From assembly GCA_937952215.1 (NCBI GenBank), contig CALFZH010000060.1:194464-258463 (forward strand): 64,000 nt of DNA, in the 5' to 3' direction. The stretch is from an uncultured bacterium (GTDB taxonomy: Bacteria; Planctomycetota; UBA1135; UBA2386). This document shows, piece by piece, positions 40,311 to 62,639 of this stretch. The notes beneath the pieces were generated by a model. The model saw only the letters and a list, made by a program, of their open reading frames with translations. It did not search any database and was not told the origin of the DNA. How positions within the stretch are numbered: the stretch's first letter is position 1; every line of letters starts with the position of its first letter. The position numbers and the translations under genes were made by a program.

Positions 40311-41444
40311 ATGAGACGGACTGTTCTCGCCGCCGTGCTACTGCTGGCTCCGCCCGCATTCGTCGCCGCCCAAGCCGGCGAGACGAAGCCGGCGCCGAGC
40401 CAGCAGGACCCGCAGGCGGCCTACGACGAGCTGGTCACCGCCCTGAACAAGGCGATGAGCGATTGGCAGACCGAGGCGCAAGCCGCGATCGAGAAGGCGC
40501 AGAAGGCCGGCGAGGCCTTCCCGGCGATCGCGATGCAGCCGCCGACGAAGGAGTTCATCAGCCGCGCGCAGGAGCTCGCCGGCGCCTTCGAAGGCAAGGA
40601 CGACGCGGTGCGCTTCCTCGCGTTCATCGTCAAGAACGCGAGCAACGAGCGCAACGCCGTCCGGAAGGCCGTCGAGACGCTCGCGGCGAAACACGCTGGC
40701 AGCAAGGCGATCGCCGACGTGCTGCCGTTCCTGCCGATGGCGACGCGCTTTGGCGCCAGCAAGTCGGTGATGGCCCTGCTCGATCAGGTCGCTGCCGACC
40801 ACGCCGACGCCGACTGCAAGGCGCTCGCCATGATCACGCGCGGCACGCTGCGGCTGCAGCAGGCGCAGACCGACGAGCAGCGCAAGGCTGCCGAGAAGGA
40901 CCTGCGCGACGTGGCCGCGGTGACCAAGAACGCGGAGCTGCTCGCCCAAGCGAAGGACGCGCTGTTCGAGATCGAGAACCTGCAGGTCGGCTGCACGGCG
41001 CCCGACATCGTCGGCGTCGACGTCGAGGGCGTTCCCTTCAAGCTCAGCGACTACCGCGGCAAGGTGGTCCTGCTCGACTTCTGGGGATTCTGGTGAGGCC
41101 CCTGCCGGGACATGATCCCGCACGAGCGGTCGCTCGTGGAGAAGTGGAAGGACAAGCCGTTCGCGTTGCTCGGCGTCAACAGTGATGGCACCGACACCGA
41201 GGAAGGTCTGAAGAAGTACCGCGAGGAAGCGAAGACCATGGGCGTGACCTGGCGCAGCTTCCGCGACGAGGGCAGCACGCCGAAGATCAGCGACACTTGG
41301 CGCGTGCAGGGCTGGCCGACCCTCTACTTCCTCGATCACGAAGGCGTGATCCGCCACAAGGACGTGCGCGACGACGCGGAGATGGAGAAGGTCCTCGCCG
41401 AGATGATCGAAGCCGCGGAAGCGGCGGCGAAGGCGAAGAAGTGA
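40311..41444 (+). CDS. secreted TlpA/ResA-like thiol:disulfide oxidoreductase, predicted selenoprotein (U-G-P-C), Sec codon at 41094..41096
   Basis: The ATG at 40311 is preceded by AGGAG, and there is a signal peptide LLLAPPAFVAAQA. ORFs 39807..41096 and 41112..41444 are in the same frame. Read-through gives VVLLDFWGFW-U-GPCRDMIPHERSLVEKWKDKPFALLGVNSDG, the Trx-fold WCxPC site. Confidence 0.75.
41121..41138 (+). promoter_or_regulatory. candidate bacterial SECIS hairpin (7-bp stem, GGUC loop)
   Basis: CACGAGC-GGUC-GCUCGUG. The loop starts 31 nt after the UGA. The GGUC apical loop is the same as in the E. coli fdhF SECIS. Confidence 0.6.
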
Positions 41445-41453
41445 GTGCGGGCC

Positions 41454-41481
41454 GCGCGCGTCCCCGTCGTGGGGCGCGCGC
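41454..41481. terminator. GC-rich hairpin between convergent genes
   Basis: GCGCGCG-T-CCCC / loop GTCGT / GGGG-CGCGCGC, about 11 bp. It sits between the stop at 41444 (+) and the stop at 41493 (-). No T-tract is present. Confidence 0.35.
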
Positions 41482-41492
41482 CGGCGGCACCC

Positions 41493-41828
41493 TCAGTACG
41501 GACTGTCGAGCATGTCCCAGATGATCTGCTCGACGTCCGGCTGGCACTTGCCGGTCAGGCGCTGCACCGGCTCGCCCTTGCCCTCGATGTGCGCCGCGAT
41601 CGCCGGCAGGTCGCCTGCGGTGACCTTGCTGTAGAAGATCTTGTCCGGGTAGAGCGTGACGTTGATGCCCTGATCGCAGGCGCCGAAGCACGGGTAGCGC
41701 CGGATCTTGATGCGCTCCTCGTTCGGATCGAACTGCTTGATCAGGTCGCGCAGCTTGTCGAACACGTCGCCACTGCCTTTCTCGGTGCAGTCGCCGCCTT
41801 CGCAGACGTAGCAGAGTCGGTTGGTCAT
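41493..41828 (-). CDS. thioredoxin-like [2Fe-2S] ferredoxin
   Basis: Internal ATG at 41828 of ORF 41493..42107, 111 aa. The Cys ligand pattern is CYVCEGGDC...YPCFGAC. It lies downstream of boxB. Confidence 0.65.
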   Translation of the reverse strand: MTNRLCYVCEGGDCTEKGSGDVFDKLRDLIKQFDPNEERIKIRRYPCFGACDQGINVTLYPDKIFYSKVTAGDLPAIAAHIEGKGEPVQRLTGKCQPDVEQIIWDMLDSPY

Positions 41829-41959
41829 ATCGGCTCGAATGTCGGTTGCTTCGATCGGCCGCGCGAGGCGCGGTGCCGGCCGGGAGGGCGCCTTCGTGGC
41901 CGCGCGCACTGCCGGCCACCGAGGAGACGCCCGAGCCGGCGCGCGCGGTGCGCGGCGGC

Positions 41960-43378
<1,419 letters not shown>

Positions 43379-43380
43379 GG

Positions 43381-45003
43381 TCAGGTCCTCCTCCAGTCGA
43401 ACTTGGCGCTCTCGGGCGCGCCGTAACGTGTGAGTGCGCCTTCGTCGCCGGTGGCGTTCGGGCGCGTGAAGATCCAGTTCTGCCAGGCCGAGAGACGGCC
43501 GAAGATCTTGCTGTCGCAGTTCTCGGCGCCGCCGAACCGCAGCGACGCCTCCATGCCGGTCAGCGCGTCGGGCGACAACGACGAACGCTCCTCGATCGCG
43601 ATGCGCGTGTCGTCGCTCCAGTCGACCGGGTCGAGCAGGTAGGTGCAGAGTCCCTGCTCGTCGGCTTCGGCGGCGCCGAGCTTCGGCGCCTCCGCGGCCA
43701 GCCGCGCGCCCTGGTCGGGCTGCGCGAGGAAGCGGTTCTGCAGCCGCGTCAGCCCGTGGCTCATCGGCAGCGCCCCGGCACTCAGCGGACCGAAGGCGAA
43801 CGCGACCCGGTCGTCGTCGAGTGCGTAGACGCGATCGCAGGCGAGCGTCAACTCGAGGAACGCGCCGGCGGCGCAGGCTTGCTCGTCGACCATCGCGTAG
43901 GTCGAGCGCGCCATCAGGTCGAAGCGGCGCAGCGTGCGCGCCATCTGCAGCAGGATCTCGTTGCAGAGCCAGTGCGTGCGGTTCGCGAACAGGTCCTTCT
44001 CGACCGCGAGCAGCGCGTCGCGGTCGCCGCGCGTCCGCAGCACGACGAGGCCGACCTGCTCGTGATCGAAGCGCAGCTGCAGCAGCGCGTCGTCGAGTTC
44101 GCGCCAGCAGCGCAGCGCCCAGGCGGCACTGCCCGCACGTTCGTAGTCGGCGCCGGTCTTCGGCTGCGGGCCGCTCGGGCCGTGCACGGTCAACGTCGCG
44201 ACGCGCGTGGCGGCGGACACCTCGAGCTGCACGTGGGTCCAGGAGTACTTGTCGCCGTCCTGCTTCGCCTGGATGCGCTCCAGTTCGATGCCCTTGCTCG
44301 CCTTGGTCGGTTGCCGGCTCGCGAGTTCCTTCGCCCGCGCCGCCACCTTCTCGGTGAACTGCGACTTCGGCCAGATCGCGTCGACGAAGCCCCAGGCGAG
44401 CGCCTTCTTGCCGCGCAGGCCCTCGGCCATCGTGCAGAACACGTCGGCGCGGTCGCGGCGGATCTTGCGCTTGTCGACCAGCCGCGTGAGGCCGCCGGTG
44501 CCCGGCAGCACGCCGAGCAGCGGCACCTCCGGCAGCGACACCGCCGAGTTGTTGTCGTTGACGAGGTGGATCTCGTCGCACGCGAGCGCCAGTTCGTAGC
44601 CGCCGCCGGCGCACGCCGCGTTGATCGCGCAGAGCGCCGTGAGCCCGCTGTGCCGGCTCGCGTCTTCGAGCGACAGCCGCGTCTCGTTCGTGAACTTGCA
44701 GAAGTTCACTTTGAACGGGTGCGTGCTCTCCGCCAGCATCCAGATGTTCGCGCCGGCACAGAACGCGCGCTCCTGCGCGCTGCCGACGACGACCACCTTC
44801 ACCTGCGGGTGCTCGAAACGCAGCCGCTGGACAGCGTCGGCCAACTCCATGTCGACGCCGAGGTCGTAGCTGTTGAGCTTCAACTCGTAGCCCGGCTGGA
44901 AGGGGTGCGCCGGGTCGACGTTCATGCGCAGGTGCGCGGTGTCGCCGTCGATCTGCAGTTGCCAGTGCTTGTAGCTGCTCGGGTGGCGGTGGAAGTCAGT
45001 CAT
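43381..45003 (-). CDS. boxC: 2,3-epoxybenzoyl-CoA dihydrolase (benzoyl-CoA-dihydrodiol lyase, double crotonase)
   Basis: Internal ATG at 45003 of ORF 43381..45111, 540 aa. YKHWQLQIDGDTAHLRMNVDP...ERAFCAGANIWML...CAGGGYELALACDEI. It sits 2 nt upstream of boxB. Confidence 0.85.
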   Translation of the reverse strand: MTDFHRHPSSYKHWQLQIDGDTAHLRMNVDPAHPFQPGYELKLNSYDLGVDMELADAVQRLRFEHPQVKVVVVGSAQERAFCAGANIWMLAESTHPFKVNFCKFTNETRLSLEDASRHSGLTALCAINAACAGGGYELALACDEIHLVNDNNSAVSLPEVPLLGVLPGTGGLTRLVDKRKIRRDRADVFCTMAEGLRGKKALAWGFVDAIWPKSQFTEKVAARAKELASRQPTKASKGIELERIQAKQDGDKYSWTHVQLEVSAATRVATLTVHGPSGPQPKTGADYERAGSAAWALRCWRELDDALLQLRFDHEQVGLVVLRTRGDRDALLAVEKDLFANRTHWLCNEILLQMARTLRRFDLMARSTYAMVDEQACAAGAFLELTLACDRVYALDDDRVAFAFGPLSAGALPMSHGLTRLQNRFLAQPDQGARLAAEAPKLGAAEADEQGLCTYLLDPVDWSDDTRIAIEERSSLSPDALTGMEASLRFGGAENCDSKIFGRLSAWQNWIFTRPNATGDEGALTRYGAPESAKFDWRRT

Positions 45004-45245
45004 GCCGCGTCGTGGTGGGGTTCGGGGGCGAGGAGTCTGGGGATCGTCGCGCGGGGTTGCAAGCACGATAGAGCACTGTTCCGAGCCTGGAATATGCAGT
45101 TTATGGCACATCGCGAAGCCATGGCGCGCGGCGGGTCGGCGCGACCTGCATTGCGGCGAAGGCCACGCCGAGTCGCGCAGTGCTCGGCGCTCGCCGCGGG
45201 GCGTGCTTGTTCTGCCGTTCGCCCGTCGTTACAGCACAAGAGACG

Positions 45246-47366
45246 ATGACTGCCGCGAGTCGCAGCACTTGGCTCCTCGCCGTCACGTGGGTGTGCATCG
45301 TCGCCGGGGTCGCGCAACTCGCCGTGCTGTCGCAGCGCGTCGAGCGCACGCCCGACGAACTCAACTACCAACTCGCCGGCCGCGTTCTCGTCGCGCGGCA
45401 GCCGCTCACGCAGATCGAGGAGCGCTTCCAGGGGCCGTTGATCCTGGTGGGCACGCAACTCACCGACACGAAACCGCGGGCGAGCACCGACGACGCGCTG
45501 CGGGCCGCGCGCCTGGGCATGGTGGTGTTCCCGGCGGTGTTGATGGTGGTGCTGGCGATGTGGTCGGCTGCGGCACTCGGTGCGGTCGCCGGCGCCTGGG
45601 TGGCGTTCCTCGCCGCGACGAGTCCAGCGCTGCTCGCCTACGGTCCGCTGCTGTCCTCGGACGTGGCGTTCACCGCGATGGCGCTGCTGACCGCGGCCGC
45701 GCTCTGGCGCTGGCTGCGGGCGCCGGGTGCGGTGTCGCTGGTCGGCCTCGGCATCGCGGTCGGCGCCGTCGCCGCGACGAAGTACACCGCCGTGCTGGTC
45801 GTCGCTGCCGTCGTGCCGATCGCCGTCGGTGCCGTACTGCGCGGCCTTGCGCCATGGCCGGGCCGCGGTGCTGGTGCCGGCCTGCCGGCGCGCCTCGCCG
45901 GCCTCGCGCTCGCGTTCGTGGTCGTCGCCGGCGTCGCCCTCGTGACGCTGCATGCCGCCTACCTGTTCGCCTCGCCGCGCTTCGCCAGCGTCGCCGAGCC
46001 GGTCTTGCGCACGCCGTGGTTGCAGGCATTGGCGACGACCGCGCCGGCGAGTTGGGTGGTCGGGCTGCTGCCGGAGCCGTTCGTGCTCGGCCTCGACTAC
46101 GCGTCGGTGTGGGCGGGCGTGACCACGAACGGCACCTTCGGCGCCACGCGCGGCAACCACTGGGCCTACTACCCCCTGACCGTGGTGTTCAAGACGCCGC
46201 TGGTGCTGCTGGTCACGGCAGCGCTCGGCCTCGTCGTCGCGGCGCGCCAGCGCGACCGGCTCGGGTACTGGGCCTGCGTGTTGGTGCCGCCGCTCGCCGT
46301 GCTCCTCTTCTGCAGCGCGACGCGCGCGCTGCAGATGGGCGTGCGCTACGTGCTACCGGTGGTGCCGGCGATGTGGGTGCTGGCGGCGGTGTTCCTTGCG
46401 CGGCCCTGGCGCCATCGGCGCCTGCAGGTCGCCACGGCCTCGATCGTGATCGCGGCGTCGCTCTTCAACGTCGTCACGGGGTGGCCGCACTTCGTCGGCT
46501 TCTTCAACGTGCTCGCCGGGGGGCAGGCCGGGGGCTGGCGCCTCTGCGCCGACGGCAACTGCGATTGGAACCAACGCGTCGTCTCGGGGCGTGACGCGCT
46601 GCTGGCCCGCCACACCGGCATCGCCGTGATCGGGCCGGGGCAGGGGCCGCGGTTGGGTCGCGTCGCGGTCGAGGTCAACACGCTGCTCGAACCGGACCCG
46701 TTCGACAGCGGCTCGATCTACCACTGGCTGCGCCGGTTCGAGCCTGTCGACCACGAAGGCGCCTCGTGGTTCTTGTTCGAGGTGACGCCGGAGTCGTTCG
46801 CGGCGGCGAGCGCGGCCGGCGACCCGCGCGCCTCGACCGACCTGGCGCTCGCCTGGCTGGAGCGCGGCGAGTTCGACCGCGCGCGGGCGGCGTTGCCGTT
46901 GGCCGCCGTCGGCGAGCCGGCTGCCGTCGCCAGGATCCGCGGCATCGTCGAGAACGCGGCCATCGCCGGCAACGATCCCGCGCGCCGTGACATGGTGGCG
47001 CACGAACTCGAAGCCGTCGGCGACTTCGAACAGGCGCTGGCGTGGCTGGATCGCGGCAACCGCGCCAACCGCACACGCGTGTTCTGGCTGCACGTTCGCA
47101 TGGGCCGTCCCGGCGCGGGACTCGACTGGCTGGAAGCGCAGGGTGCCGACGGCTCGCGGACCACCGAGGAGGTAGTGTTGCTGGCAGCGATGCTCATCGA
47201 AGGCGCTACGGGTGCGGGCCTGCTGGCGGACCCGCGGCGTTCGCGCGAGCTCATGCAACGAGGACCCGCGCCGACGGCGGATTCGCCGTGGCGCGACGCC
47301 TGGAGCGAACTCGAGCGTCGCGTCGCTGCGGCGATCGAACGCGAGGCCTACTTCCGCGACAAATGA
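45246..47366 (+). CDS. PMT_2/GT39-like polytopic glycosyltransferase with C-terminal TPR-like domain
   Basis: From ORF 45180..47366. It has about 12 transmembrane segments, then a soluble helical repeat region (LALAWLERGEFDRARAAL...GDFEQALAWLDRG). Confidence 0.5.
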   Translation: MTAASRSTWLLAVTWVCIVAGVAQLAVLSQRVERTPDELNYQLAGRVLVARQPLTQIEERFQGPLILVGTQLTDTKPRASTDDALRAARLGMVVFPAVLMVVLAMWSAAALGAVAGAWVAFLAATSPALLAYGPLLSSDVAFTAMALLTAAALWRWLRAPGAVSLVGLGIAVGAVAATKYTAVLVVAAVVPIAVGAVLRGLAPWPGRGAGAGLPARLAGLALAFVVVAGVALVTLHAAYLFASPRFASVAEPVLRTPWLQALATTAPASWVVGLLPEPFVLGLDYASVWAGVTTNGTFGATRGNHWAYYPLTVVFKTPLVLLVTAALGLVVAARQRDRLGYWACVLVPPLAVLLFCSATRALQMGVRYVLPVVPAMWVLAAVFLARPWRHRRLQVATASIVIAASLFNVVTGWPHFVGFFNVLAGGQAGGWRLCADGNCDWNQRVVSGRDALLARHTGIAVIGPGQGPRLGRVAVEVNTLLEPDPFDSGSIYHWLRRFEPVDHEGASWFLFEVTPESFAAASAAGDPRASTDLALAWLERGEFDRARAALPLAAVGEPAAVARIRGIVENAAIAGNDPARRDMVAHELEAVGDFEQALAWLDRGNRANRTRVFWLHVRMGRPGAGLDWLEAQGADGSRTTEEVVLLAAMLIEGATGAGLLADPRRSRELMQRGPAPTADSPWRDAWSELERRVAAAIEREAYFRDK

Positions 47367-48142
47367 ACGTCCCTGCCCCGAACGCTGGTGCGCGACCGCG
47401 CGTGGTCGTCGTGATGCCGGCGTACAACGCCGCGAAGACCCTGGCCGCGACGCTCGCGGACATCCCGGCGGGCAGCTGCGACGAAGTGATCGTCGGCGAC
47501 GACTGCAGCCAGGACGACACCATCGCCGTCGCGAAGAGCCTGGGGCTGTTGGTGCTGAAGACCGAGCGCAACCTCGGCTACGGCGGCAACCAGAAGATGC
47601 TCTACCGGGCCGCGCTCGATCGTGGCGCCGACATCGTGGTGATGCTGCACCCGGACTACCAGTACGACCCGACGCTGGTGCCGTACTTCGTCGGCTTCGT
47701 GGAGCGTGGCGTCTGCGACGTGATCCTCGGCAACCGCATCCGTTCGCGGCGCGAGGCGCTGCGCGGCGGCATGCCGGTGTGGAAGTACCTGTTCAACCGC
47801 GTCCTCACCGTCGTGCTGAACCTCGCCTACGGAATGAACCTCTCCGAGTTCCACTCCGGCTTCCGTGTCTACCGGCGCGCGGTGCTCGAGAAGGTCGACT
47901 TCGAGTGCAACAGTGACGCCTTCGGCTTCGACGCGCAGTTCCTGGCGCAGGCGATCCACCACGGGTTCACCGTCGCCGACGCGCCGATGCCGGTGAAGTA
48001 CTTCAAGGAAGCGTCGTCGATCGGCTTCCTGCCGTCGGTGCGCTACGGCATCGACAACCTGCGCGCGGCTGCCGCGTTCACGCTCGCCCGGATCGGCTTC
48101 CGGTTCCGAGGTTTCGCACCGCGAGGCACCGTGCCGCGATGA
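47363..48142 (+). CDS. family 2 glycosyltransferase (polyprenol-phosphate sugar synthase-like)
   Basis: The ATG at 47363 overlaps the upstream stop (ATGA). VVVMPAYNAAKTL...VIVGDDCSQDDT...GYGGNQK...VMLHPDYQYDP is a GT-A DxD-type pattern. Confidence 0.75.
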   Translation: MNVPAPNAGARPRVVVVMPAYNAAKTLAATLADIPAGSCDEVIVGDDCSQDDTIAVAKSLGLLVLKTERNLGYGGNQKMLYRAALDRGADIVVMLHPDYQYDPTLVPYFVGFVERGVCDVILGNRIRSRREALRGGMPVWKYLFNRVLTVVLNLAYGMNLSEFHSGFRVYRRAVLEKVDFECNSDAFGFDAQFLAQAIHHGFTVADAPMPVKYFKEASSIGFLPSVRYGIDNLRAAAAFTLARIGFRFRGFAPRGTVPR

Positions 48143-49587: not shown

Positions 49588-49588
49588 G

Positions 49589-51660: not shown

Positions 51661-51711
51661 CGTGGTGCGCCGGATGCTAGCGAGGGCGAGGTCGTGGGTC
51701 TGCGGGCTCGC

Positions 51712-52356
51712 CTAGGTCGCAGCGTCGTCGTTCGTCGCCGTGCGCCAGGCGCCGCTGCGCAGCAGCTCGAGTTTTTCCGCGAGCCTCGGCAGTGCGCGCT
51801 GGTAGCGCTTGCGCGCGGCTTCCTCGCTGACGCCGAACCTCTCACCCAGCTCCGGGAACGACAGCCCGTCCCAGTCGCGGCCGCGGATCGCCTCACGGTC
51901 GTCGGGATCGAGCAGTTCGAGGGCGAGGCGCAGCCACTCGCGCTGTTCGTCCGCGGCAGCGCGGGCCGGCGGCTCGGTTACCGAACGCATGGGCGCGTCG
52001 AGCAGCAGCACGGAGTCGCTCGGCAGCGCCCGCGCGCGGCGCGGATCGCGTCGCTGCCGATGCAGGTAGCGCACACGATCGATGAGGGTGTTCTCGATGA
52101 TGCGCAGCAGCAGTGCGCGGAACGCCGCCGGATCGTCGATCGCGAACCGCGGGCCATCCTGCAGCACGTCGACGAGCGTGCGTTGCACGAAGTCGTCGGT
52201 GTCGCCATCGGCGCGGGCCGCGGGCGAGAGTCGCTTGCGCACCTGGGCCGCGAGCCACGGCAGGTGATCGGCAACCAGCAGATGCAGTGCCTCCTGGTCG
52301 CCGCGGTGAACGCGCAGCACGCGCTGCGTGATGGTGTCGGGTGCTGGTGCGCTCAC
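51712..52356 (-). CDS. ECF-type sigma-70 factor (Ser/Thr-kinase-associated type)
   Basis: An internal GTG at 52356 of ORF 51712..52812 overlaps the kinase stop (GTGA). It has region 2 (DDFVQRTLVDVL) and region 4 (REAIRGRDWDGLSFPELGERFGVSEEAARKRYQRALPRL). Confidence 0.7.
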   Translation of the reverse strand: MSAPAPDTITQRVLRVHRGDQEALHLLVADHLPWLAAQVRKRLSPAARADGDTDDFVQRTLVDVLQDGPRFAIDDPAAFRALLLRIIENTLIDRVRYLHRQRRDPRRARALPSDSVLLLDAPMRSVTEPPARAAADEQREWLRLALELLDPDDREAIRGRDWDGLSFPELGERFGVSEEAARKRYQRALPRLAEKLELLRSGAWRTATNDDAAT

Positions 52357-55220: not shown

Positions 55221-55383
55221 CTGGCTGCAGGCGGGCGTTCCAGCATAGGTGCCGGGAGTCTTCGCGTTCTCGGGAAGCGCCGCGCCGGCGGCAAGCGGAC
55301 CACGATTCTGCGATTCGCCGGCTCGTCCGCTCCCGCGCGGGTGCGGCGCTCCAGCGGGGGTCTTTCCTTCCAACTCGACCCCG

Positions 55384-57657
55384 ATGAACCTGAACCGAAC
55401 TTGCCGTGCCGTGGCCGCGACCACCGTCGTTGCCGCAGCGTCCTTCGCCCAACAACCTGCCGACGCCCTCGCGACCCCCGCGATCGGCCGAGGACTGGTC
55501 GTTCCCATCCACACGCAAGCCGACGACGGCGGCGTGCCCTATGGCCTGTGGGCCGGCGGCGACGACTACAAGGCGTCGTTCGACGGCGGCATGGTCTTCG
55601 TGCCGTACGGCGCGAGTGCGGGCCCGGCGCCGACGTGGTCGTGGCGGACGGCCAGCGCGCGCGTCGGCGAACTCGAACTCGTCACCCACGCGCCGCGGCT
55701 GTGCCACACCGACCTGCGGGCCGAGTACCACCTCGGCGGCGTGGTCGAAGCGTACGACGTGCGCGCCGACGGCCTCGAGCAGACGTTCGTGCTCGCGCAG
55801 CGGCCGGCTGCCGCCGGCGACCTGGTGATCCGCGGCGCCGTTGCCTCGGTCCTGCAACCGCTTGCCTCCGAGGCTGGCGGGATCGCCTACGTCGACGCTG
55901 GCGGCGCGGTGCGGGTGCACTACGGCGCCGCGGTCGCGATCGATGCGAACGGCCAGCGCCGGGCGATGGCGACGACGCCGGTCGCCGGCGGCATCGAACT
56001 CCGGCTCGATGCCGGCTGGCTCGCGTCGGCGGCGTTCCCGCTGGTCGTGGATCCGCTGTTGGTGCCAGTGGCGATCGCCAGCGGCACCACCATTGGAGCC
56101 GTTGACGTTGCGCACGACCCGCTCGGCACCAAGGGCCTGTGGTTCGCAGAGGTGCGAGCCGTCGGCACCGATACGGACGTGCGGCTGATCCGCACCGAGG
56201 ACGACGGCAGCGCGCCGTTCGCCGTCTACACGGATCTGTCGGCGAACTGGGCGTCGTTGGAGCCGAGCCTCGGCATCAACCGTCCGGCCGCGAGCACGGC
56301 GTTTGCGTTCACCCGCCACTTCTTGAACGACACGCGTGGCGTGCGTGTGCACGTGCACGACCGGCTCGACCTGGGTTTCGACGGCAACTGGGTGGCGATC
56401 CCGAACGTGGATGGCCGCAACCAGTGGCGCCCGTCGGTCGGCCATGAGCTGTCGCCGGTGTCGTTCACGTCGCTGCTGATCGCCTACCAGGTCGAGACGA
56501 CCGGGGCGTTCAGCAACATCTCGACGAGCGCGATCCACGCCGCCGAGTTTGCGTGCGGCGGCATCGGTTCGGTGGTGAGCCAGTTCGTCGTCAACGAGGT
56601 CGCCGGCGTCGACAGCGAGCGACCGAGCGTCGCCAAGGTCGCGATCGGGCCGACGCGAACCTGGACCGTCGCGTTCCAGCGCTACCAGCCGTTCGGCGGC
56701 GGCTTCACGTGGGACATCGGCCTGCGCCGCGTCGACGCGGCATGGGCAGTCGGCGCCGAGGTCGTGTTGCCGAACGTGCAAGCGTCCCAGCACGAGATGG
56801 CGCCGCAGCTCGCCGGCTCCGACGACCGGCTGATGGTGTTCTTCACCGCATCGACGCAGGCCGAGTCGGTCGCCAAGCCGAACGGCATCAACGGCCACCG
56901 GTTCTACGGGCAACGCATCGCCGGCAACGGCAACTCGGTGTCGTTCCCGTTCGGCGTGCGACTGCTGCAGAGCAACGGTGACGCGCGGCTCGAGCTCTCG
57001 GGAGCGGACTTCGACACGATCTCGCAGAGCCACTGGGCGCTGATGTTCCGCAGCAACGCGACCGAGACGCTCTACATGCGCGTCTACGGCTACCAGGGCA
57101 TCGAACTGAGCAGCGACAACATCGACGACCCGACCACGGGGCTCGGCACCAGCGTTCACGGCGGCGTCTGCTTCCAGGAGAACGAAGCCGAGTTCATCGC
57201 CGGCTATGGCATCGACGAACCCGGTGTCGGCTCGTACCTCCGCATGCGGCGCCGTGACTACCCGTTCACGCCGCCGCCCGCGACCAGCGGCAGTGCTTGC
57301 ACGTCGACGGTGCTCGGCTGGCAAGGAACGCAGTGGATCGGCAGCCAGCAGAGTGGCGTCACGTTCGCGAACGCCCCGGCCGGCTCGGCGACGGCCGTCG
57401 TCGTCGCCACGCAAACCGCCTTCCTGCAGATCTTCGGTGTCGATGGAGTGCAGGACGGCTGCTGGCTCCTCGTGCCGCTGGCGGGGCCGGACTTCCTCGG
57501 CGTGCTGCCGCCGATCCTCGGCAGCGCAGGAAACTGGACGCTGCCACTGCCGGACGGGCTCCCCGGCATGGCGGTGTACTTCCAGGGCGTGACCTACGAC
57601 CTGGCGACCGGGCTGCACACGAGCAGCTCGCGCCTGGCGGTCCTCCTCACGAAGTGA
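55384..57657 (+). CDS. large secreted hypothetical protein
   Basis: ATG at 55384 of ORF 55249..57657, with signal peptide AVAATTVVAAASFAQQ. The product is 757 aa with no motif I can recognise. Confidence 0.45.
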   Translation: MNLNRTCRAVAATTVVAAASFAQQPADALATPAIGRGLVVPIHTQADDGGVPYGLWAGGDDYKASFDGGMVFVPYGASAGPAPTWSWRTASARVGELELVTHAPRLCHTDLRAEYHLGGVVEAYDVRADGLEQTFVLAQRPAAAGDLVIRGAVASVLQPLASEAGGIAYVDAGGAVRVHYGAAVAIDANGQRRAMATTPVAGGIELRLDAGWLASAAFPLVVDPLLVPVAIASGTTIGAVDVAHDPLGTKGLWFAEVRAVGTDTDVRLIRTEDDGSAPFAVYTDLSANWASLEPSLGINRPAASTAFAFTRHFLNDTRGVRVHVHDRLDLGFDGNWVAIPNVDGRNQWRPSVGHELSPVSFTSLLIAYQVETTGAFSNISTSAIHAAEFACGGIGSVVSQFVVNEVAGVDSERPSVAKVAIGPTRTWTVAFQRYQPFGGGFTWDIGLRRVDAAWAVGAEVVLPNVQASQHEMAPQLAGSDDRLMVFFTASTQAESVAKPNGINGHRFYGQRIAGNGNSVSFPFGVRLLQSNGDARLELSGADFDTISQSHWALMFRSNATETLYMRVYGYQGIELSSDNIDDPTTGLGTSVHGGVCFQENEAEFIAGYGIDEPGVGSYLRMRRRDYPFTPPPATSGSACTSTVLGWQGTQWIGSQQSGVTFANAPAGSATAVVVATQTAFLQIFGVDGVQDGCWLLVPLAGPDFLGVLPPILGSAGNWTLPLPDGLPGMAVYFQGVTYDLATGLHTSSSRLAVLLTK

Positions 57658-57708
57658 CCGCGCGGCGACCGAGCTTGCGGCCGAGCCGCACGGCCGCATG
57701 ATCGCGCC

Positions 57709-58539
57709 GTGCGCATCGACGCCCACCAGCACTTCTGGCGCTACTCGGCGAGCCAGTACGGCTGGATCGACGCGCGCATGCAACGCATCGCGCGCGACTT
57801 CCTGCCGAACGACCTGGCGCCGAAGCTGGCGGCGAGCGAGGTCGACGGCTGCATCGCCGTGCAGGCGCGGTGCAGCGACGAAGAGACGACGTTCCTGCTC
57901 GACCTCGCGGCGGCGAACCCGTTCGTGAAGGCCGTGGTCGGCTGGACCGACCTGTGCGCTGCCGACGCGGCGGCACGCGTCGCGGCGCTGGCGGACGAAC
58001 CGTTGCTGCGCGGGCTGCGCCACATCGTGCAGGCCGAGCCCGACGACTTCCTGGCCCGCGCCGACTTCCAGCGCGGCGTGCGCTCCCTGCGCGCGCACGG
58101 GCTCGTCTACGACGTGCTGGTCTACCCGCGACAGCTCGGCGCGGCCGAAGCGTTCGTGCGCGCGCTGCCGGACCAGCCGTTCGTGCTCGATCATCTCGCC
58201 AAGCCGGACATCGCCGCGGCGCAGCGCGACGCCTGGGAACAGCCGTTCCGCGCGCTCGCGCGGCACCCGCACGTCGCCTGCAAGCTCAGTGGCATGGTGA
58301 CCGAGGCGAAGTGGCTCGCGTGGCGCCCCGACGACTTCCGTTGGTACCTCGATACCGCACTCGACGCGTTCGGCGAGGACCGCATCCTGTTCGGCTCCGA
58401 CTGGCCGGTGTGCCTCGTCGCCGCCGCCGACTACGCGCAGGTGCACGACCTGCTCGCGCACTGGGCCGAACGGCTCGGCCCGGTCGCCCGCGCCAAGCTG
58501 TTCGGCGGCAACGCCGCGCGCATCTACCGCATCGCATGA
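57709..58539 (+). CDS. amidohydrolase_2 family (fuconolactonase/LigI-like lactonase)
   Basis: MRIDAHQHFW (metal-binding HxH), FVLDHLAKPD and ILFGSDWPV. Confidence 0.7.
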   Translation: MRIDAHQHFWRYSASQYGWIDARMQRIARDFLPNDLAPKLAASEVDGCIAVQARCSDEETTFLLDLAAANPFVKAVVGWTDLCAADAAARVAALADEPLLRGLRHIVQAEPDDFLARADFQRGVRSLRAHGLVYDVLVYPRQLGAAEAFVRALPDQPFVLDHLAKPDIAAAQRDAWEQPFRALARHPHVACKLSGMVTEAKWLAWRPDDFRWYLDTALDAFGEDRILFGSDWPVCLVAAADYAQVHDLLAHWAERLGPVARAKLFGGNAARIYRIA

Positions 58540-59510
58540 GCACCTACTTCGTCACCGGCGCGCTCGGCTGCATCGGCGCCTGGGTCTGCAAGCACCTGGT
58601 CGAGCGCGGCGACGTGCCGGTGGTGTTCGACCTCGGCGGCGAGGCGCGCCGCATCCGCGACGTGCTCGACGCCGACGCGTTCGCGCGCGTGCGGTTCGTC
58701 GCCGGCGACATCACCGACCTCGCGGCGGTGCGCGAGGCGGTCGCCGCGTGCCGACCGCGCGCCATCGTGCACCTCGCCGGACTGCAGGTGCCGTTCTGCC
58801 GTCAGGATCCGCCGCTCGGCGCGCGCGTGAACGTGCTCGGCACGATCCACCTGTTCGAGAGCGCGCTCGCAGCCGGTGTGAACCGCGTCGTCTACGCGAG
58901 CTCGGCGGCGGTGTTCGGCCCGAGCGAGGACGACGGGGTGCCGGTGGCCGAGGCTGCCGCGGGCGCGCCGATCACGCACTACGGCGTCTACAAGCAGGCG
59001 AACGAAGGCACCGCGCGCGTCTACTGGCTCGAGAAGAAGCTGAGCAGCGTCGGGCTGCGCCCGCTGACGGTGTACGGCGTCGGCCGCGACCAGGGCATGA
59101 CCGCCGGTCCGACCACGGCGATGAAGGCGGCGGTGGTCGGCCGCCCGTACACGATCGCGTTCTCCGGACCGACCGACTTCCACTACGTCGCCGACACCGC
59201 CGCCGCGTTCGTCGCCTGCGCGGATGAAGGCGAACCCGGCGCGCACGTCTTCAACCTGCACGGCGACACCGTCGACGTCGCCGACGTCGTGCGCGCGATC
59301 GAACACGAAGTGCCGGCGGCGCGCGGGGCGATCCGCGTGCAGGGGCCGCGCATCCCGATCCCGCCCCATCTCGACGACCGGGCGATCCGGGCGGCGTACC
59401 CGCGGCTACCGCACACGCCGTTGGCGACCGGCGTGCACGCGACGATCGCGCGCTTCCGCGAACTGCACGCCGCTGGCCGGCTCGACACGCGCGATCTGCC
59501 GGCGACCTGA
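58536..59510 (+). CDS. NAD-dependent epimerase/dehydratase (extended SDR)
   Basis: The ATG at 58536 overlaps the upstream stop (ATGA). It has YFVTGALGCIGAWV (GxxGxxG) and a YGVYKQANE Y-x3-K motif. Confidence 0.75.
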   Translation: MSTYFVTGALGCIGAWVCKHLVERGDVPVVFDLGGEARRIRDVLDADAFARVRFVAGDITDLAAVREAVAACRPRAIVHLAGLQVPFCRQDPPLGARVNVLGTIHLFESALAAGVNRVVYASSAAVFGPSEDDGVPVAEAAAGAPITHYGVYKQANEGTARVYWLEKKLSSVGLRPLTVYGVGRDQGMTAGPTTAMKAAVVGRPYTIAFSGPTDFHYVADTAAAFVACADEGEPGAHVFNLHGDTVDVADVVRAIEHEVPAARGAIRVQGPRIPIPPHLDDRAIRAAYPRLPHTPLATGVHATIARFRELHAAGRLDTRDLPAT

Positions 59511-59554
59511 GCGCCGCGCTGCGCGAGGCACGCAGCACCGTCATACTGCGCGCC

Positions 59555-60133
59555 ATGCCGTTCATCCGTCAGGTCGAGGACCACGAAGCCGGCAGCGAAG
59601 CGCGGCGCGAACTCGACGCGGCGCGCCAGCGCGCGGGCCGCGTCTGGAACATCGTGCGCATCATGACGCCCAATCCGGCGGTGCTGCGCGCGTCGATGGC
59701 GCTCTACCGCGCGGTGATGTTCGGGCCCTCGCCGCTGTCGCGTCGGCAGCGCGAACTGCTCGCGGTCGTCACCAGCCGGGCCAACGGCTGCGTCTATTGA
59801 CTGCGGGCCCACGCGAACGACCTCCGTGCCGAGGTCGTCGACCTGGTCGATGACGGCGCGCGCGACGCGTGGGTCGACGCGGTGGCGCGCGACTGGCGGA
59901 CCGCGGCGCTGAGCCCCGTCGAGCGCGCGTTGTGCGCGTTCGCGGACAAGCTCGCGCGCGCGCCGGCGGCGAACGGCGTCGCCGACGTCGACGCGCTGCG
60001 CGCGGCGGATCTCGACGACGTCGCGATCCACGACGCGACGCAGGTGGTCGCCTACTTCGCCTACATCAACCGCATCGCCAACGGCCTGGGCGTCGAGCTC
60101 GAGACGTTCGTGCGGGCCTGGGGCGCGGTTTGA
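59555..60133 (+). CDS. AhpD/carboxymuconolactone-decarboxylase-family peroxidase-related protein, predicted selenoprotein (C-V-Y-U), Sec codon at 59798..59800
   Basis: ORFs 59555..59800 and 59882..60133 are in the same frame. Read-through gives ...RELLAVVTSRANGCVY-U-LRAHANDL..., the AhpD-family N-x-C-x-Y-C-x3-H motif with the second Cys encoded by TGA. The combined length of 192 aa is typical for this family. Confidence 0.75.
59817..59838 (+). promoter_or_regulatory. candidate bacterial SECIS hairpin (8-bp stem, CGUGCC loop)
   Basis: ACGACCUC-CGUGCC-GAGGUCGU. The loop starts 24 nt after the UGA and contains GU. Confidence 0.55.
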
Positions 60134-60191
60134 GCGGCCCACGCTGGCGGCGGGGCTGGATCCGGCGCGCGCCATCGGCTTCAACCCGTGC

Positions 60192-61376
60192 ATGCTGCAC
60201 GTGCTGTTCGTCGTCGTCGCCTGCGCTGGTGTGTCGGCCCAGGATCCGCCGCGGGAGCCGTCATCCGTGACGACGGCCGAAACCGGGTTCCTGACGCGCA
60301 CGATCGACGTCGCTGGGACGGAGCGTCGCTACGTCGTGTACGTGCCGGCGGGCTACACGCGCGAACGCGACTGGCCGCTGCTCGTGTTCCTGAACGGCAT
60401 GGGCGAGTGCGGCACCGATGGCCAGCGGCAGGTCGAGGTCGGCCTCGGGCCGGCGATCCGCGCCGAGCCGGAGCGCTGGCCGTTCGTGGTGGTGTTCCCG
60501 CAGAAGCCCGACAAGCCTTCGCAGTGGAGCGACCACGAGGCGCTGGTGATGGGCACGCTCGCGGCGGCGGAGAAGGAGTTCCGCATCGATCCGCGGCGGC
60601 GGTTGCTCACCGGGTTGTCGCAGGGTGGCGCAGGAACGTGGGCGCTCGGCGGCAAGCGCGCCAAGGTGTGGGCCGCGATCGCGCCGGTGTGTGGCTACAA
60701 GACGCCGGCGTTCGATGGGGCGGCGCTGAAGGCGATGCCGATCTGGGCGTTCCACGGCGATGGCGACAAGGTCGTGCCCGTCGGCCAGTCGAAGGAGATG
60801 TGCGAGGCGGTCGAGCAGGCGGGCGGGTCGCCGCTGCTCACGCTCTACCCCGGCGTGGGCCACAACTCGTGGGACCGCGCCTACCGCGAGTCCGGGCTCG
60901 CCGAGTGGTTCTGCGCCGTCGCCAACGAACCACTCGGCGCGCGGCTGCTGGCGATGCCGGAGACCCTCACCGCCGTCACGATCACGATCGCGCAGCGGCC
61001 AGCGGCGTCGGCATCGAGCGCGCCGCGGACGACGCGGCTCGCGGTGGCCGGCACGACGTGGGAATGGGACCTGCCGACCGGAATGGAGGGGGCGCTGCAG
61101 GGCGGTGGCGGGACGACGGCTGCGTCGTGGCAGGACAGCAAGAAGGCCAAGCTGGTGCACGAGGTGCTGCGGTCGCTGCAGCGAGCCGGCGCGTTCGACG
61201 CACGTTCGCCGGCGGCCGTCGACGACCGTGTCGCCGGCACGCGGCTCGACGTCGTGCTGCGTGGTCCGGCCGGCGAGTGGAGCTTCTCGCGTCACGTGGC
61301 GGCCGACGTACCGCAGCACGGTTCGTTCGCTGCCGCGATGCAGCGCGTCACCGACGCGATCGCCAACGCCCGCTGA
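60192..61376 (+). CDS. secreted alpha/beta hydrolase (esterase/PHB-depolymerase-like) with C-terminal unknown domain
   Basis: Signal peptide VVVACAGVSAQ. It has a GLSQGG nucleophile elbow, FHGDGDKVVPV and GVGHNSWD, giving a Ser-Asp-His arrangement. Confidence 0.65.
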   Translation: MLHVLFVVVACAGVSAQDPPREPSSVTTAETGFLTRTIDVAGTERRYVVYVPAGYTRERDWPLLVFLNGMGECGTDGQRQVEVGLGPAIRAEPERWPFVVVFPQKPDKPSQWSDHEALVMGTLAAAEKEFRIDPRRRLLTGLSQGGAGTWALGGKRAKVWAAIAPVCGYKTPAFDGAALKAMPIWAFHGDGDKVVPVGQSKEMCEAVEQAGGSPLLTLYPGVGHNSWDRAYRESGLAEWFCAVANEPLGARLLAMPETLTAVTITIAQRPAASASSAPRTTRLAVAGTTWEWDLPTGMEGALQGGGGTTAASWQDSKKAKLVHEVLRSLQRAGAFDARSPAAVDDRVAGTRLDVVLRGPAGEWSFSRHVAADVPQHGSFAAAMQRVTDAIANAR

Positions 61377-61385
61377 CGCGCCGCG

Positions 61386-62639
61386 TCACTTCCACCCGTA
61401 GACCCAGTGCATCGACGGCGCCACCGGCGGCGCGTCGGCCGGCGCGAGTTCGAACGCGAAGGCCAGCGGTGCCGGGCCGAAGTCGTCGTCCCGGCCGTTG
61501 AACTCGGTGGCGCCGCGGCGTTCGCCGATCGCCAGCAGCTGGAACGTGGTGAACACGCCGCGCGCACGGTCGAAGCGCGCAGCACCCAGCAGCTTGCCGT
61601 CGTAGCCGAGTTGCTGTTCCGAATGCGGGCCGTAGCCGCGCGTTGCCCAGGTGCCACTGCGCTGGATGCGCACCTTGCCCTCGAGCAGCAGCATCTGGTT
61701 GTCGCCGTCGAGCGCATCGCACGTCAGCGTTAGCGCCGCCTCGACGACGTTCTCCGGCTGGTGCGCGAACGTCTGCCCGCGCACGTTGTCGACGAAGTGC
61801 GCGCGAACGAACCGCTGCAGCAGCGCTGCCGGCATCGCCACCCGCGCCCCGAGTTCGGCCGCGGGCACGAAGCTCGCGACCTCGGCGCGGCGGAACCACG
61901 CGTGGTCCTGGTTCCACGCCGAACCGCGCCAGCCCGGCGTCGCCTTCACGCGCGAGACGTCGCGGCTGTAGGCGCGCAGCACCAGACCGTCGGCCGGGAA
62001 GTGGCGCTCGAAGCGTTGGATCGCCGTCGGATCGAGCGCGGGGGCGGCGCCCGACCGCTGCTCGCGCGGCATCGCCTCGAACTTCGCGAGCGCCTGCTGC
62101 AGCATCTTCGCCATCTCGCCGGCGTCGCGCGTGTTGATCGACGCGAGGAAGGCGCCGGTCGCGGTCACCGCGTAGATGCCTTGGCGCGTGTTCGACGGCT
62201 TGGTGCGTCCGCCGTAGTGGCCCTGTTCGCAGAAGCCCTGGAAGAAGCGGCACTCGGCGTCGCTGTCGCGCTGCAGCCGGCTCACCTCGTCGGCGACGGC
62301 GACGAACCGCGCCGCCAGCGCCTGCACCGCGTCGTTCGACCAGACGGACCGTCTGGCCGCCACGCCGTTGTTTCAAGTGCAGGCCAGCGGATGGCCGTTC
62401 ATCGCCCACAGCAGGATCGGCTTGTCGGCAGCCTGGGCGGCGACCACGCCCTCGCCGAGCGTGCCGAGCCACGCGATGCGCCGCCAGGCGAGTTCGTCTT
62501 CGCTCGGCACGATCTTCAGCCACAGGGTGCGGAAGGTGGAGTCGTCGAGAACCGGCACCGGCTCGGCCTGCGCCAGGGCCGCGCCGATCGCCAGCGCGAA
62601 CGGGAGTGCGTGCATCGCCGGAGTCGCCATGCGCGGCAT
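61386..62639 (-). CDS. secreted thioredoxin-fold protein fused to an unrecognised 325-aa domain, predicted selenoprotein (C-T-U), Sec codon at 62373..62375
   Basis: ORF 61386..62363 and the C-terminal 85-88 codons of ORF 62373..63341 are in frame, separated by TGA plus 3 codons. The N-terminus has a signal peptide (MPRMATPAMHALPFALAIGAALAQA). This is followed by ...AADKPILLWAMNGHPLACT-U-NNGVAARRSVWSNDAVQALAARFVAVADEV, a beta1-loop-alpha1 pattern of the Thioredoxin_7/DUF255 type. The start is 62639 or 62630. Confidence 0.6.
62338..62358 (-). promoter_or_regulatory. candidate bacterial SECIS hairpin (8-bp stem, GGUCC loop)
   Basis: On the mRNA strand: GGCCAGAC-GGUCC-GUCUGGUC. The loop starts 22 nt after the UGA and contains the GGUC motif. 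Confidence 0.55.

Follow-up and report, generated by a model that had tools for sequence, protein, structure and literature searches.

The locus analysed here, a window of 64,000 nucleotides from a planctomycete genome, contains three genes that are each interrupted by an in-frame TGA, and it raises the question of whether these codons are stops or are read as selenocysteine (Sec). As the initial annotation had placed them, the three TGAs lie at positions 41094 (forward strand, gene 1), 59798 (forward strand, gene 2) and 62375 (reverse strand, gene 3). From comparison of sequences, we consider it very probable that all three are Sec codons decoded by the standard bacterial pathway. The decoding mechanism itself is well known. 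SelD produces selenophosphate, SelA converts Ser-tRNA-Sec to Sec-tRNA-Sec, and SelB-GTP binds the charged tRNA as well as a hairpin in the mRNA (the bacterial SECIS element) located 20–30 nt past the UGA inside the coding sequence. SelB then carries Sec to the ribosome, competing there with RF2. In the genes described here, SelB would bind the three hairpins that follow the TGAs, selenium would be inserted at the three UGAs, and Sec would be the redox-active residue of the three products.

In all three genes the frame stays open past the TGA, codon usage scores as coding on both sides, and exactly one TGA is present. Orthologues in related genomes likewise carry one in-frame TGA each, which falls on the same codon in every sequence that was read out, and the UGA is kept in orthologues from other Sec-using organisms. 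We also see that the TGA position is occupied by Cys in solved or full-length homologues of all three genes, such that each UGA sits within a continuous coding region at a Cys position. If the TGAs were real stops, each locus would hold a pair of small genes, or a truncated gene with re-initiation behind it, which is how public gene calls show it. The database proteins of the gene 3 family do have this appearance, as nearly all of its 1600 representatives are annotated as ~325-aa products starting past the TGA. However, such starts are merely the first ATG, GTG or TTG that a gene caller meets after the TGA, and are an artefact. Furthermore, each TGA falls inside a single domain (AhpC-TSA and CMD in Pfam for genes 1 and 2, and a continuous thioredoxin fold in an AlphaFold2 (AF2) model for gene 3), real stops would land exactly on the catalytic Cys position, and full-length Cys forms exist. 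A reading as real stops is thus very unlikely, and the gene 3 relatives bear out the earlier remark that naive ORF calling fragments such genes: annotation pipelines split these selenoprotein genes in two.

It is scarcely credible that the TGAs are nonsense mutations in pseudogenes or assembly errors. Mutations do arise at or near the site in some genomes, as indicated by a true TGG at the site in homologue P0035 and by an extra TAG in one orthologue. However, orthologues would then be expected to show mostly sense codons or frameshifts at the site, and the opposite is observed among independent genomes or paralogues. The TGA is found at the same codon in 27/27 retrieved homologues of gene 1, down to ~36% amino-acid identity, at the same C-x-x-U-x-x-x-H position in 27 gene 2 homologues from related genomes, and in 80/80 gene 3 loci from Planctomycetota and Armatimonadota genomes. 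In the downstream frames, both coding signal and protein conservation are kept, and the limitation to a single TGA per gene also argues against decay or error.

The Sec reading further depends on the decoding machinery, and the initial annotation had asked for selABCD to be located, naming a genome without selB or selC as grounds for rejection. The host genome, a member of the Planctomycetota with a size of 4.83 Mb and a GC content of 70%, encodes tRNA-Sec (75.8 bits, anticodon TCA), SelB (352.6 bits, cut-off 242), SelA (453 bits, cut-off 268) and SelD (353 bits, cut-off 125), the last having its own in-frame TGA and thus being Sec-containing. All of these lie on contigs C43, C20 and C55, in agreement with the earlier statement that the window, which is part of contig C60, holds none of selA, selB, selC, selD or tRNA-Sec. 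One could instead propose that UGA codes for Trp or Gly throughout the genome, or that a near-cognate tRNA reads through it without help from SelB; the only observation found in favour is the open frames themselves. This is extremely improbable, as TGA is the commonest stop codon, ending 1616 of 2093 confident long ORFs (77%), and prfB (encoding RF2, 491 bits) is not lost and has retained its classical +1 frameshift site, CUU UGA C, by which it is autoregulated in a UGA-dependent manner. In-frame TGAs across the genome are limited to Cys-equivalent or metal-site positions, and none was seen in a housekeeping gene at a position where Trp or Gly is conserved. General reassignment, which had been named beforehand as a second possible refutation, is further opposed by the presence of SelB and a dedicated tRNA-Sec. 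In its other occurrences UGA acts as a stop in this genome, with groES and thiS both ending at a TGA directly before in-frame groEL and thiG, respectively. The three TGAs are best read as Sec codons.

Gene 1 (40311..41444, forward strand) encodes an exported TlpA/ResA-like (AhpC-TSA/Redoxin) thiol:disulfide oxidoreductase of 377 aa. The protein has a signal peptide and an N-terminal stretch of ~200 aa that is helical, and the motif U-G-P-C lies in a thioredoxin-fold domain at the C-terminus. The Sec codon of the gene (41094..41096, forward strand) is in frame in the context FWGFW-U-GPC. The protein scores 61.4 bits against PF00578 (cut-off 26) and 50.3 bits against PF08534, and in an alignment with the ResA structure 4nmu (E = 3.5e-17) the U falls on the first Cys of CxxC. 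Gene 1 is a known kind of selenoprotein, since Prx-like thiol:disulfide oxidoreductases with PF00578 (AhpC-TSA) and UxxC are already catalogued (Table 1, PMC9312934), and its Pfam score exceeds the threshold, with UxxC in the place of CxxC. It differs from those proteins in its signal peptide, its additional N-terminal region and its membership of a group in Planctomycetota that is rich in paralogues, each genome having several Sec copies. Matches to the NCBIfam ResA and TlpA models were far below their cut-offs, as was that to WAxxUGC_long (32.2 bits, curated cut-off 300), whose WAxxUGC motif is not that of gene 1. Alignments of gene 1 orthologues begin at residue 1 and contain one TGA each. 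In the product, Sec would replace the attacking N-terminal Cys of CxxC, giving a selenenylsulfide as the redox couple.

Gene 2 (59555..60133, forward strand) encodes an AhpD-like ‘peroxidase-related enzyme’ of the CMD family, with 192 aa, no signal peptide and the motif C-V-Y-U-x-x-x-H; its Sec codon (59798..59800, forward strand) is in frame in the context NGCVY-U-LRAH. Cut-offs are passed for both NCBIfam TIGR01926 (144.1 bits, cut-off 81.8) and PF02627 (49.2 bits, cut-off 23), and the CxxC-type motif, here in CxxU form, is followed by His as in that family. Against the AhpD structure 6k40 (E = 1.5e-23), C-V-Y-U-L-R-A-H aligns with C-V-Y-C-A-V-S-H, placing U on the second Cys of CxxC. The NCBIfam selenoprotein model AhpD_rel_CFYUT gave 63 bits, below its cut-off of 175. 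Gene 2 is an ordinary member of a known selenoprotein kind: it shares C-x-x-U-x-x-x-H, with U on the second Cys, with the AhpD-like/CMD-like CxxU selenoproteins (COG2128, PF02627; Table 1, PMC9312934), and no notable difference was found. The product would be a cytoplasmic AhpD-like peroxidase-related protein with Sec in place of the second Cys of CxxC-x3-H.

Gene 3 (61386..62639, reverse strand) encodes a 417-aa protein that has a signal peptide and is exported; its Sec codon (62373..62375, reverse strand) is in frame in the context LACT-U-NNG. In sequence searches at E up to 0.01, neither Pfam nor NCBIfam gave a family, and no thioredoxin-family profile matched. In the AF2 model (pLDDT 92.2, pTM 0.89), a strand at residues 75–80 is followed by U89 and a helix at residues 90–97, and more beta-alpha units continue to residue 189. 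Among PDB folds, the top Foldseek hit was AGR3 (3ph9), with probability 1.00 and a target-normalised TM-score of 0.60 for the N-terminal domain only; the E-value of only 0.016 and identity of 15% make this a resemblance of fold only. The structure search gave no PDB fold match for the C-terminal beta-rich domain of ~200 aa. On the basis of the model, the N-terminal domain is predicted to fold like thioredoxin, and U89 to cap the N-terminus of helix 1. No CxxC, UxxC or CxxU dithiol motif is present in gene 3, and the motif is instead [C/Q/S]-[T/V]-U, with one residue between. All three motifs that had been named as thiol-redox positions (UGPC, CVYU and CTU) are thus seen in the proteins, but the Cys of CTU varies, with Q or S in its place in ~10/80 orthologues, so that only the U is essential there.

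Nearly every gene 3 match has the TGA in 24/41 related genomes. Among non-Sec homologues, five full-length proteins have Cys at the site, and others have A, D, R, S or W, so not all members of the family are redox-active. The closest catalogued protein type is the ‘Thioredoxin-like selenoprotein Sec.1’ (PF13192), with a CxU motif (Table 1, PMC9312934). Gene 3 resembles Sec.1 and AGR3 in the predicted thioredoxin-like N-terminal domain with Sec at the helix-1 N-cap, and most members have C-x-U. Unlike Sec.1, it shows no sequence match to PF13192, is a 417-aa exported protein fused to a beta domain without known fold match, and tolerates Q or S in place of Cys. The family seems to be uncatalogued. 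We propose that gene 3 encodes an exported thioredoxin-fold protein in which a single Sec would occupy the usual catalytic position at the helix-1 N-cap, the adjacent Cys being dispensable.

Each UGA is followed by a hairpin. That of gene 1 (41121..41138, forward strand) is CACGAGC/GGUC/GCUCGUG, with a 7-bp stem and a GGUC tetraloop that starts 31 nt after the UGA; that of gene 2 (59817..59838, forward strand) is ACGACCUC/CGUGCC/GAGGUCGU, with an 8-bp stem and a CGUGCC loop starting at 24 nt; and that of gene 3 (62337..62359, reverse strand) is CGGCCAGAC/GGUCC/GUCUGGUCG, with a 9-bp stem, including a G-U pair, and a GGUCC loop starting at 22 nt. The description of GC-rich stems of 7–8 bp with loops at 22–31 nt therefore stands, except that the gene 3 stem reaches 9 bp if G-U is counted, and the loops do contain GGUC (two cases) or GU, as had been noted. 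Common to all three is GU at loop positions 2–3. The hairpins also agree with the bSECISearch description, namely a stem-loop just 3' of the UGA with a conserved G or GU in the apical loop ~16–37 nt downstream. Rfam SECIS families gave no match to the hairpins at E up to 10; we know of no general bacterial SECIS model in Rfam.

Taken singly, none of the hairpins is exceptional in coding DNA of 70% GC. A generic strong-hairpin score compared with 4677 random in-frame coding positions gave p = 0.14, 0.077 and 0.011 for genes 1, 2 and 3, respectively. A specific motif (stem of at least 6 bp, loop of 4–6 nt, GU at loop positions 2–3, start 12–36 nt past the codon) was, by contrast, rare, being found at 1.9% of control positions, or 0.7% with stems of at least 7 bp; of 17 Sec sites whose acceptance rests on other evidence, 14 have it, among them those of the three genes here.

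In gene 1, the 18 nt of the hairpin are identical in 26/27 homologues, including all six third-codon positions, and the sole variant has both stem ends changed, from C-G to A-U. This is the only covarying pair, and 100% of cells are paired, compared to 15–43% with the register slid. For gene 2 (alignment A5, 21 sequences), 81% of cells are paired compared to at most 46% when slid, with both-sided changes at four pairs and a covariation score of 0.143 versus 0.063 for shuffles, a value reached by 0/500 shuffles. Some gene 2 relatives show a tetraloop, GGUC, in place of CGUGCC (codons CGG UCG), and one subfamily has a CCGCCGC-GGUCU-GCGGCGG hairpin with compensatory changes. For gene 3 (alignment A3, 80 sequences), 81.6% of cells are paired compared to 19–51% when slid, and G27, a loop residue at a third-codon position, is invariant. 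A rare Arg codon (AGA/AGG) that pairs with the U of UGG is used in 61/80 sequences, and a G at column 37 is found in 12/19 CGN variants compared to 2/61 others; this co-occurrence fits a shifted register with a bulged U. The minimum free energy is below that of synonymous-codon shuffles in 90% of sequences (−13.3 vs −10.4 kcal/mol). Judged from these alignments, the hairpins appear to be conserved beyond protein constraint, with compensatory changes. Conservation at the nucleotide level is partly confounded, since the protein sequence beneath each hairpin is conserved too.

The closest known system is the E. coli fdhF-type SECIS, where the hairpin likewise lies within the ORF, a few tens of nt beyond the UGA, and has G-U at positions 2–3 of the apical loop. 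Two of the three loops here literally contain GGUC, the loop sequence of fdhF, a bulged U in the stem seems to be used by some gene 3 orthologues, and the host genome likewise has all of selA, selB, selC and selD. Unlike fdhF, the stems are short (7–9 bp), perfect, GC-rich helices without a long lower stem, a further class of loop, CGUGC(C), occurs commonly in the host genome, and the hairpins match no Rfam model. Binding by the host SelB is predicted.

Most Sec-using bacteria have 1–5 Sec codons. The host genome has at least 17 and probably ~22, in support of the earlier suggestion that the density of Sec codons hints at a large redox selenoproteome. Thioredoxin-fold or HMA-fold proteins account for most of them, and the selenoproteins whose N-termini were read look exported. 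The published record is 39–46 (PMC9312934, PMC12013277). With a selenoproteome of this size, the closeness of the three Sec genes, which lie within 21.3 kb, is accounted for. It is very unlikely that they form a functional island of co-regulated or co-transferred selenoprotein genes, even though 5/17 accepted Sec codons fall on C60, which makes up 6.9% of the genome, and a hand Poisson estimate for three in such a stretch anywhere in the genome is ~0.03–0.1. The genes are on different strands and are separated by unrelated genes for an enoyl-CoA hydratase, a Ser/Thr kinase, an amidohydrolase, an epimerase and an esterase. They are probably independent transcription units rather than a functional cluster; GC content is uniform over the window, and the orthologues in relatives are on different contigs.

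The initial annotation had proposed three in-frame TGA codons at redox motifs within this window, and a six-frame motif search placed all three exactly as claimed: FWGFW-U-GPC in gene 1 (41094–41096, + strand), NGCVY-U-LRAH in gene 2 (59798–59800, + strand) and LACT-U-NNG in gene 3 (62375–62373, − strand), where U denotes a TGA read as selenocysteine (Sec). If TGA is taken as a stop, each locus falls into two ORFs in the same frame. Coding potential was scored by codon-usage log-odds, with 908 long ORFs from this genome as the training set; in the best of six frames, both flanks of every TGA came out as coding. GC content is 70% across the entire window. Both the observation of three TGA codons and their interpretation as Sec are confirmed. 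The recoding mechanism is the standard, textbook SelB/SECIS pathway summarised in PMC9312934, in which an mRNA hairpin 3' of the UGA is the proposed SelB target.

The Sec reading had been made to hinge on the presence of selB and selC in the genome (4.83 Mb in 67 contigs, 94% complete). The full machinery was located, and, as had been noted from the sequence, none of its four components lies in the window, which occupies C60:194464–258463. The tRNA-Sec is found on contig C43 (104849–104943; 75.8 bits against a cut-off of 47) and is called by ARAGORN as tRNA-SeC with anticodon TCA. The selB gene is on C20 (352.6 bits, covering profile positions 1 to 578 of 581) and selA is on C55 (453 bits). 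Adjoining selA is selD (353 bits), with one in-frame TGA at the known G-S-G-U-A-A-K position. The alternative, that TGA is generally reassigned in this lineage, is contradicted by three kinds of data. Stop usage in 2093 confident long ORFs is 1616 TGA, 447 TAG and 30 TAA. The RF2 gene prfB (491 bits) retains its CUU UGA C +1 frameshift site (L171:1480–1640, on C16), with the first ~25 codons in one frame and the remainder in the +1 frame, an arrangement that makes sense only if RF2 reads UGA as a stop. Finally, groES and thiS terminate at TGA immediately ahead of the in-frame groEL and thiG genes.

The GC-rich hairpin described after each TGA is present, always with GU in the loop. In gene 1 it is CACGAGC-GGUC-GCUCGUG (41121–41138, + strand; 7-bp stem, loop starting 31 nt after the UGA), in gene 2 ACGACCUC-CGUGCC-GAGGUCGU (59817–59838, + strand; 8 bp, 24 nt) and in gene 3 CGGCCAGAC-GGUCC-GUCUGGUCG (62359–62337, − strand; 9 bp, 22 nt). 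By a generic hairpin score these structures are ordinary for such coding DNA (p = 0.14, 0.077 and 0.011 for genes 1, 2 and 3, against 4677 random in-frame positions), and neither hairpin strength nor the MFE of the 60 nt 3' of the UGA set these sites apart from coding positions drawn at random. Because these tests failed to discriminate, we adopted a GU-loop motif, defined as a stem of 6 bp or more with a loop of 4–6 nt carrying GU at loop positions 2–3 and starting 12–36 nt after the codon. Unlike generic hairpins, this motif is rare at random coding positions, occurring at 1.9% of controls (0.7% when the stem must reach 7 bp). It was found at 14 of the 17 Sec sites that we accepted on grounds independent of the hairpin, all three window sites included, and at 5.8% of the remaining in-frame TGA candidates from a genome scan. 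An Rfam scan of positions 41000–62500 at E up to 10 returned no SECIS family and only two chance snoRNA-like matches. A hairpin of 7–9 bp with two conserved loop bases holds too little information for a specific search of 9.7 Mb, and a covariance model trained on a single family would chiefly capture that family's codons.

Gene 1 (40311–41444, + strand) encodes a signal peptide, a region of ~200 aa that has no Pfam match, and an AhpC-TSA/Redoxin thioredoxin-fold domain (PF00578, 61.4 bits; PF08534, 50.3 bits). Its top NCBIfam models are ResA and TlpA, each under its own cut-off, and in the alignment to ResA 4nmu its U takes the place of the first CxxC cysteine (FWGFW-U-GPC versus FWGTW-C-KPC). 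Matches were found in all 41 related genomes, with several Sec paralogues per genome; nearly all of the stronger matches (above ~120 bits) carry one in-frame TGA, and many weak thioredoxin-fold matches carry none. The hairpin sequence, CAC GAG CGG UCG CUC GUG, is the same 18 nt in 26 of 27 homologues down to ~36% identity, including its six third-codon positions, whereas neighbouring codons vary. The sole variant, L165, has both stem ends altered (C-G to A-U). Every cell of the stem is paired across the 27 homologues, compared to 15–43% in slid registers. With a single stem-end change among otherwise identical sequences, conservation of this hairpin is strong and covariation minimal.

Gene 2 (59555–60133, + strand) is an AhpD-like ‘peroxidase-related enzyme’ that exceeds the cut-offs of TIGR01926 (144.1 versus 81.8 bits) and of the CMD domain PF02627. 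In the alignment to AhpD 6k40 its U replaces the second CxxC cysteine, and 27 homologues in related genomes retain the TGA in a C-x-x-U-x-x-x-H context. Hairpin statistics were drawn from 21 sequences of the main type, in which pairing across the 8-bp helix reaches 81%, compared with no more than 46% once the register is slid, and both partners have changed at four pairs (11 cells). For covariation, the score was 0.143 versus 0.063 for shuffles, and not one of 500 shuffles reached the observed value. In relatives with CGG UCG codons, a GGUC tetraloop caps a 7-bp stem, and a divergent subfamily forms CCGCCGC-GGUCU-GCGGCGG, with several compensatory changes among three members. Genes 1 and 2 both belong to selenoprotein families listed in PMC9312934, as a Prx-like thiol:disulfide oxidoreductase (UxxC) and an AhpD-like or CMD-like protein (CxxU), respectively; gene 3 is seemingly uncatalogued.

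Gene 3 (61386–62639, − strand) encodes an exported protein without a match in Pfam or NCBIfam profile searches. Word-indexed and full phmmer searches of 1.84 billion cluster representatives revealed a large family, with 1600 matches when E was limited to 1e-3 and 217 when it was limited to 1e-30. In nearly all of them the match starts at query residues 93–121, directly past U89, which indicates that gene callers cut this family at the TGA and bears out the earlier concern that naive ORF calling fragments Sec genes. Exactly one TGA is present in nearly every match from 24 of the 41 related genomes. A scan with one genome per GTDB species found 215 relatives, of which the best 80 were used for the TGA count and hairpin alignment; an orthologue with an extra stop, L067, was left out of the structure alignment. 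These 80 come from Planctomycetota (labelled Phycisphaerales, Planctomycetia, Pirellulaceae and Isosphaeraceae) and Armatimonadota (Fimbriimonadaceae and Chthonomonas), and all 80 have the TGA in LLWAMNGHP[LM][AG][CQS][TV]-U-NNG[VI]. As the [CQS] position varies, the Cys of the ‘CTU’ motif is dispensable and the U is not. Full-length non-Sec homologues are rare, with Cys at the site in five and A, D, R or S in others. One full-length homologue from a metagenome contig (P0035, L052:1822–3036) has a genuine TGG (Trp) codon there, probably a recent inactivating or neutralised change. A paralogue ~36% identical to gene 3 lies on the same contig (L190, C60:110774–111982, − strand), with one TGA in G-C-T-U-N-N-G.

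Across the 80 sequences, 81.6% of cells in the gene 3 hairpin are paired, versus 19–51% when slid, and the loop G that falls at a third-codon position never varies. Of the 80, 61 use AGA/AGG, rare codons for Arg, and their A pairs with the U of the Trp codon. In the 19 with CGN, the codon after Trp starts with G in 12, compared to 2 of the 61, a pattern consistent with a register shift that bulges out a U. Folding energy was better than that of synonymous-codon shuffles in 90% of the 80 sequences. An AlphaFold2 model (53-row alignment; pLDDT 92.2, pTM 0.89) predicts a thioredoxin-like N-terminal fold, in which U89 caps the N-terminus of helix 90–97, and a beta-rich C-terminal domain. When this model was compared to the PDB with Foldseek, only the N-terminal domain gave a match, to the thioredoxin-like protein AGR3 3ph9 (target-normalised TM-score 0.60, E = 0.016), and nothing significant was found for the C-terminal domain. 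The family could not be recognised among the 87 families of PMC9312934 or the nine added by PMC12013277; the closest entry, ‘Thioredoxin-like selenoprotein Sec.1’ (PF13192, CxU), has no sequence match to gene 3. Gene 3 looks like an uncatalogued selenoprotein family.

The suggestion of a large redox selenoproteome was substantiated by a genome scan of 69,084 frame-wise TGAs, filtered for an open frame and coding signal on both sides, which gave 121 candidates. Ten were accepted because one Pfam domain spans the TGA: two further AhpC-TSA proteins (C11, C34), three Thioredoxin_7 proteins (C5, C11, C59), a DsbD_TM plus Thioredoxin_7 protein (C63) and four HMA-domain proteins in two tandem pairs (C8, C62). 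Together with two further TlpA-like paralogues homologous to gene 1 (C21 and C60:55177, one TGA each), the gene 3 paralogue, SelD and the three window genes, these make up the 17 Sec codons. Six more candidates have a GU-loop hairpin, including loci on C59, C63 and C58. A seventh (C29), in a UxxC context and with no Pfam match, is without a good hairpin. Rejected candidates, in which TGA is an ordinary stop ahead of an in-frame neighbour, were SDR/periplasmic-binding protein (C20), Band7/Arc-like (C60), groES/groEL (C63) and thiS/thiG (C53). Window position 7148 was also rejected, as the stop of ORF 6428–7150 shortly ahead of ORF 7163–7618.

Sites L177 and L178 (C11:175951–177258, − strand) are two in-frame TGAs 140 codons apart, U-G-P-C in an AhpC-TSA domain and U-G-W-C in a Thioredoxin_7 domain, each followed by a GU-loop hairpin; the locus is either a single exported protein with two Sec residues or a pair of adjacent Sec genes. 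The tandem small HMA-domain genes (L175 and L176 on C8, L191 and L192 on C62) have U-G-G-C or U-G-S-C replacing CxxC, and all four have a CGUGC-loop hairpin 17–21 nt 3' of the UGA. In the DsbD-type membrane protein L193 (C63:89272–90360, + strand), DsbD_TM precedes a C-terminal Thioredoxin_7 domain with U-V-N-C, and the downstream hairpin has no GU loop. L200 (C59:142100–143300, + strand) is a candidate two-Sec metal-binding protein, exported, with two repeats that are HMA-like by eye. Both repeats contain a lone TGA in frame (G-I-S-G-U-G-A-A in one, A-G-L-G-U-M-G-T in the other, neither near a Cys), in each case followed by a 7–8 bp hairpin with a CGUGA loop. The exported redoxin-like L201 (C63:85080–85940, + strand) has a candidate C-terminal resolving Sec 13 codons ahead of its stop (K-P-Y-G-U-R-T-K), with a 9-bp, CGUGC-loop hairpin 3' of it. 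L202 (C58:101860–103200, + strand), also exported, has a lone TGA with a 6-bp GU-loop hairpin, and its N-terminal segment KPVLWLQALGDIDGFA-U-SA is similar to the thioredoxin-like active-site region of gene 3.

Most Sec-using bacteria have one to five selenoproteins. Published bacterial maxima are 39 in Syntrophobacter fumaroxidans and 40–46 in Desulfosediminicola species (PMC9312934, PMC12013277), and the groups described as selenoprotein-rich in a 2022 review are Deltaproteobacteria, Clostridia and Synergistetes, with Planctomycetes unmentioned (PMC9312934). With ~20 Sec codons in a 4.8-Mb genome, the present lineage ranks among the selenoprotein-rich bacteria. We see an even balance for and against the combined proposal that gene 3 founds an uncatalogued, essentially obligate-Sec family (WAMNGHPxx[C/Q/S]xUNNG; Planctomycetota and Armatimonadota, 215 species-level genomes, 1600 cluster representatives) and that the lineage has a selenoproteome of ~20 or more, much of it exported. 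If true, an exported selenoproteome of thioredoxin and HMA folds would depart from published accounts, which centre on anaerobes and on largely cytoplasmic selenoproteins. Such a gene 3 family would be invisible in public annotation because nearly all copies are split at the UGA. As these genes and thousands of public-database relatives are cut in two, the redox and metal-handling proteins that Planctomycetota export are misread in a systematic way. Gene 3, a thioredoxin-fold protein relying on a single Sec and joined to a partner domain with no significant PDB fold match, offers a tractable route towards finding a new selenoenzyme activity outside the cytoplasm.

The closeness of the three window genes might suggest a functional island, as a hand Poisson estimate puts the probability of three Sec genes inside 21.3 kb anywhere in the genome at roughly 0.03–0.1. 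Such an island is unlikely, as the neighbours are unrelated (an ECF-sigma fusion, enoyl-CoA hydratase, Ser/Thr kinase, amidohydrolase, epimerase, esterase and altronate dehydratase) and the three genes are not all on one strand. Taken with the Poisson estimate, these features indicate that the closeness reflects the density of Sec genes. Elsewhere in the window, a 94-nt ‘tRNA-Ala (GGC)’ called by ARAGORN at 5690–5783 (− strand) lies within the coding ORF 5565–6431, and Rfam at E up to 0.01 finds no tRNA there; the call is probably a false positive. The neighbouring sigma-factor fusion (37618–40104, − strand) is unusual, an 828-aa ORF with N-terminal ECF sigma-70 regions 2 and 4 and a CarboxypepD_reg domain near residue 650.
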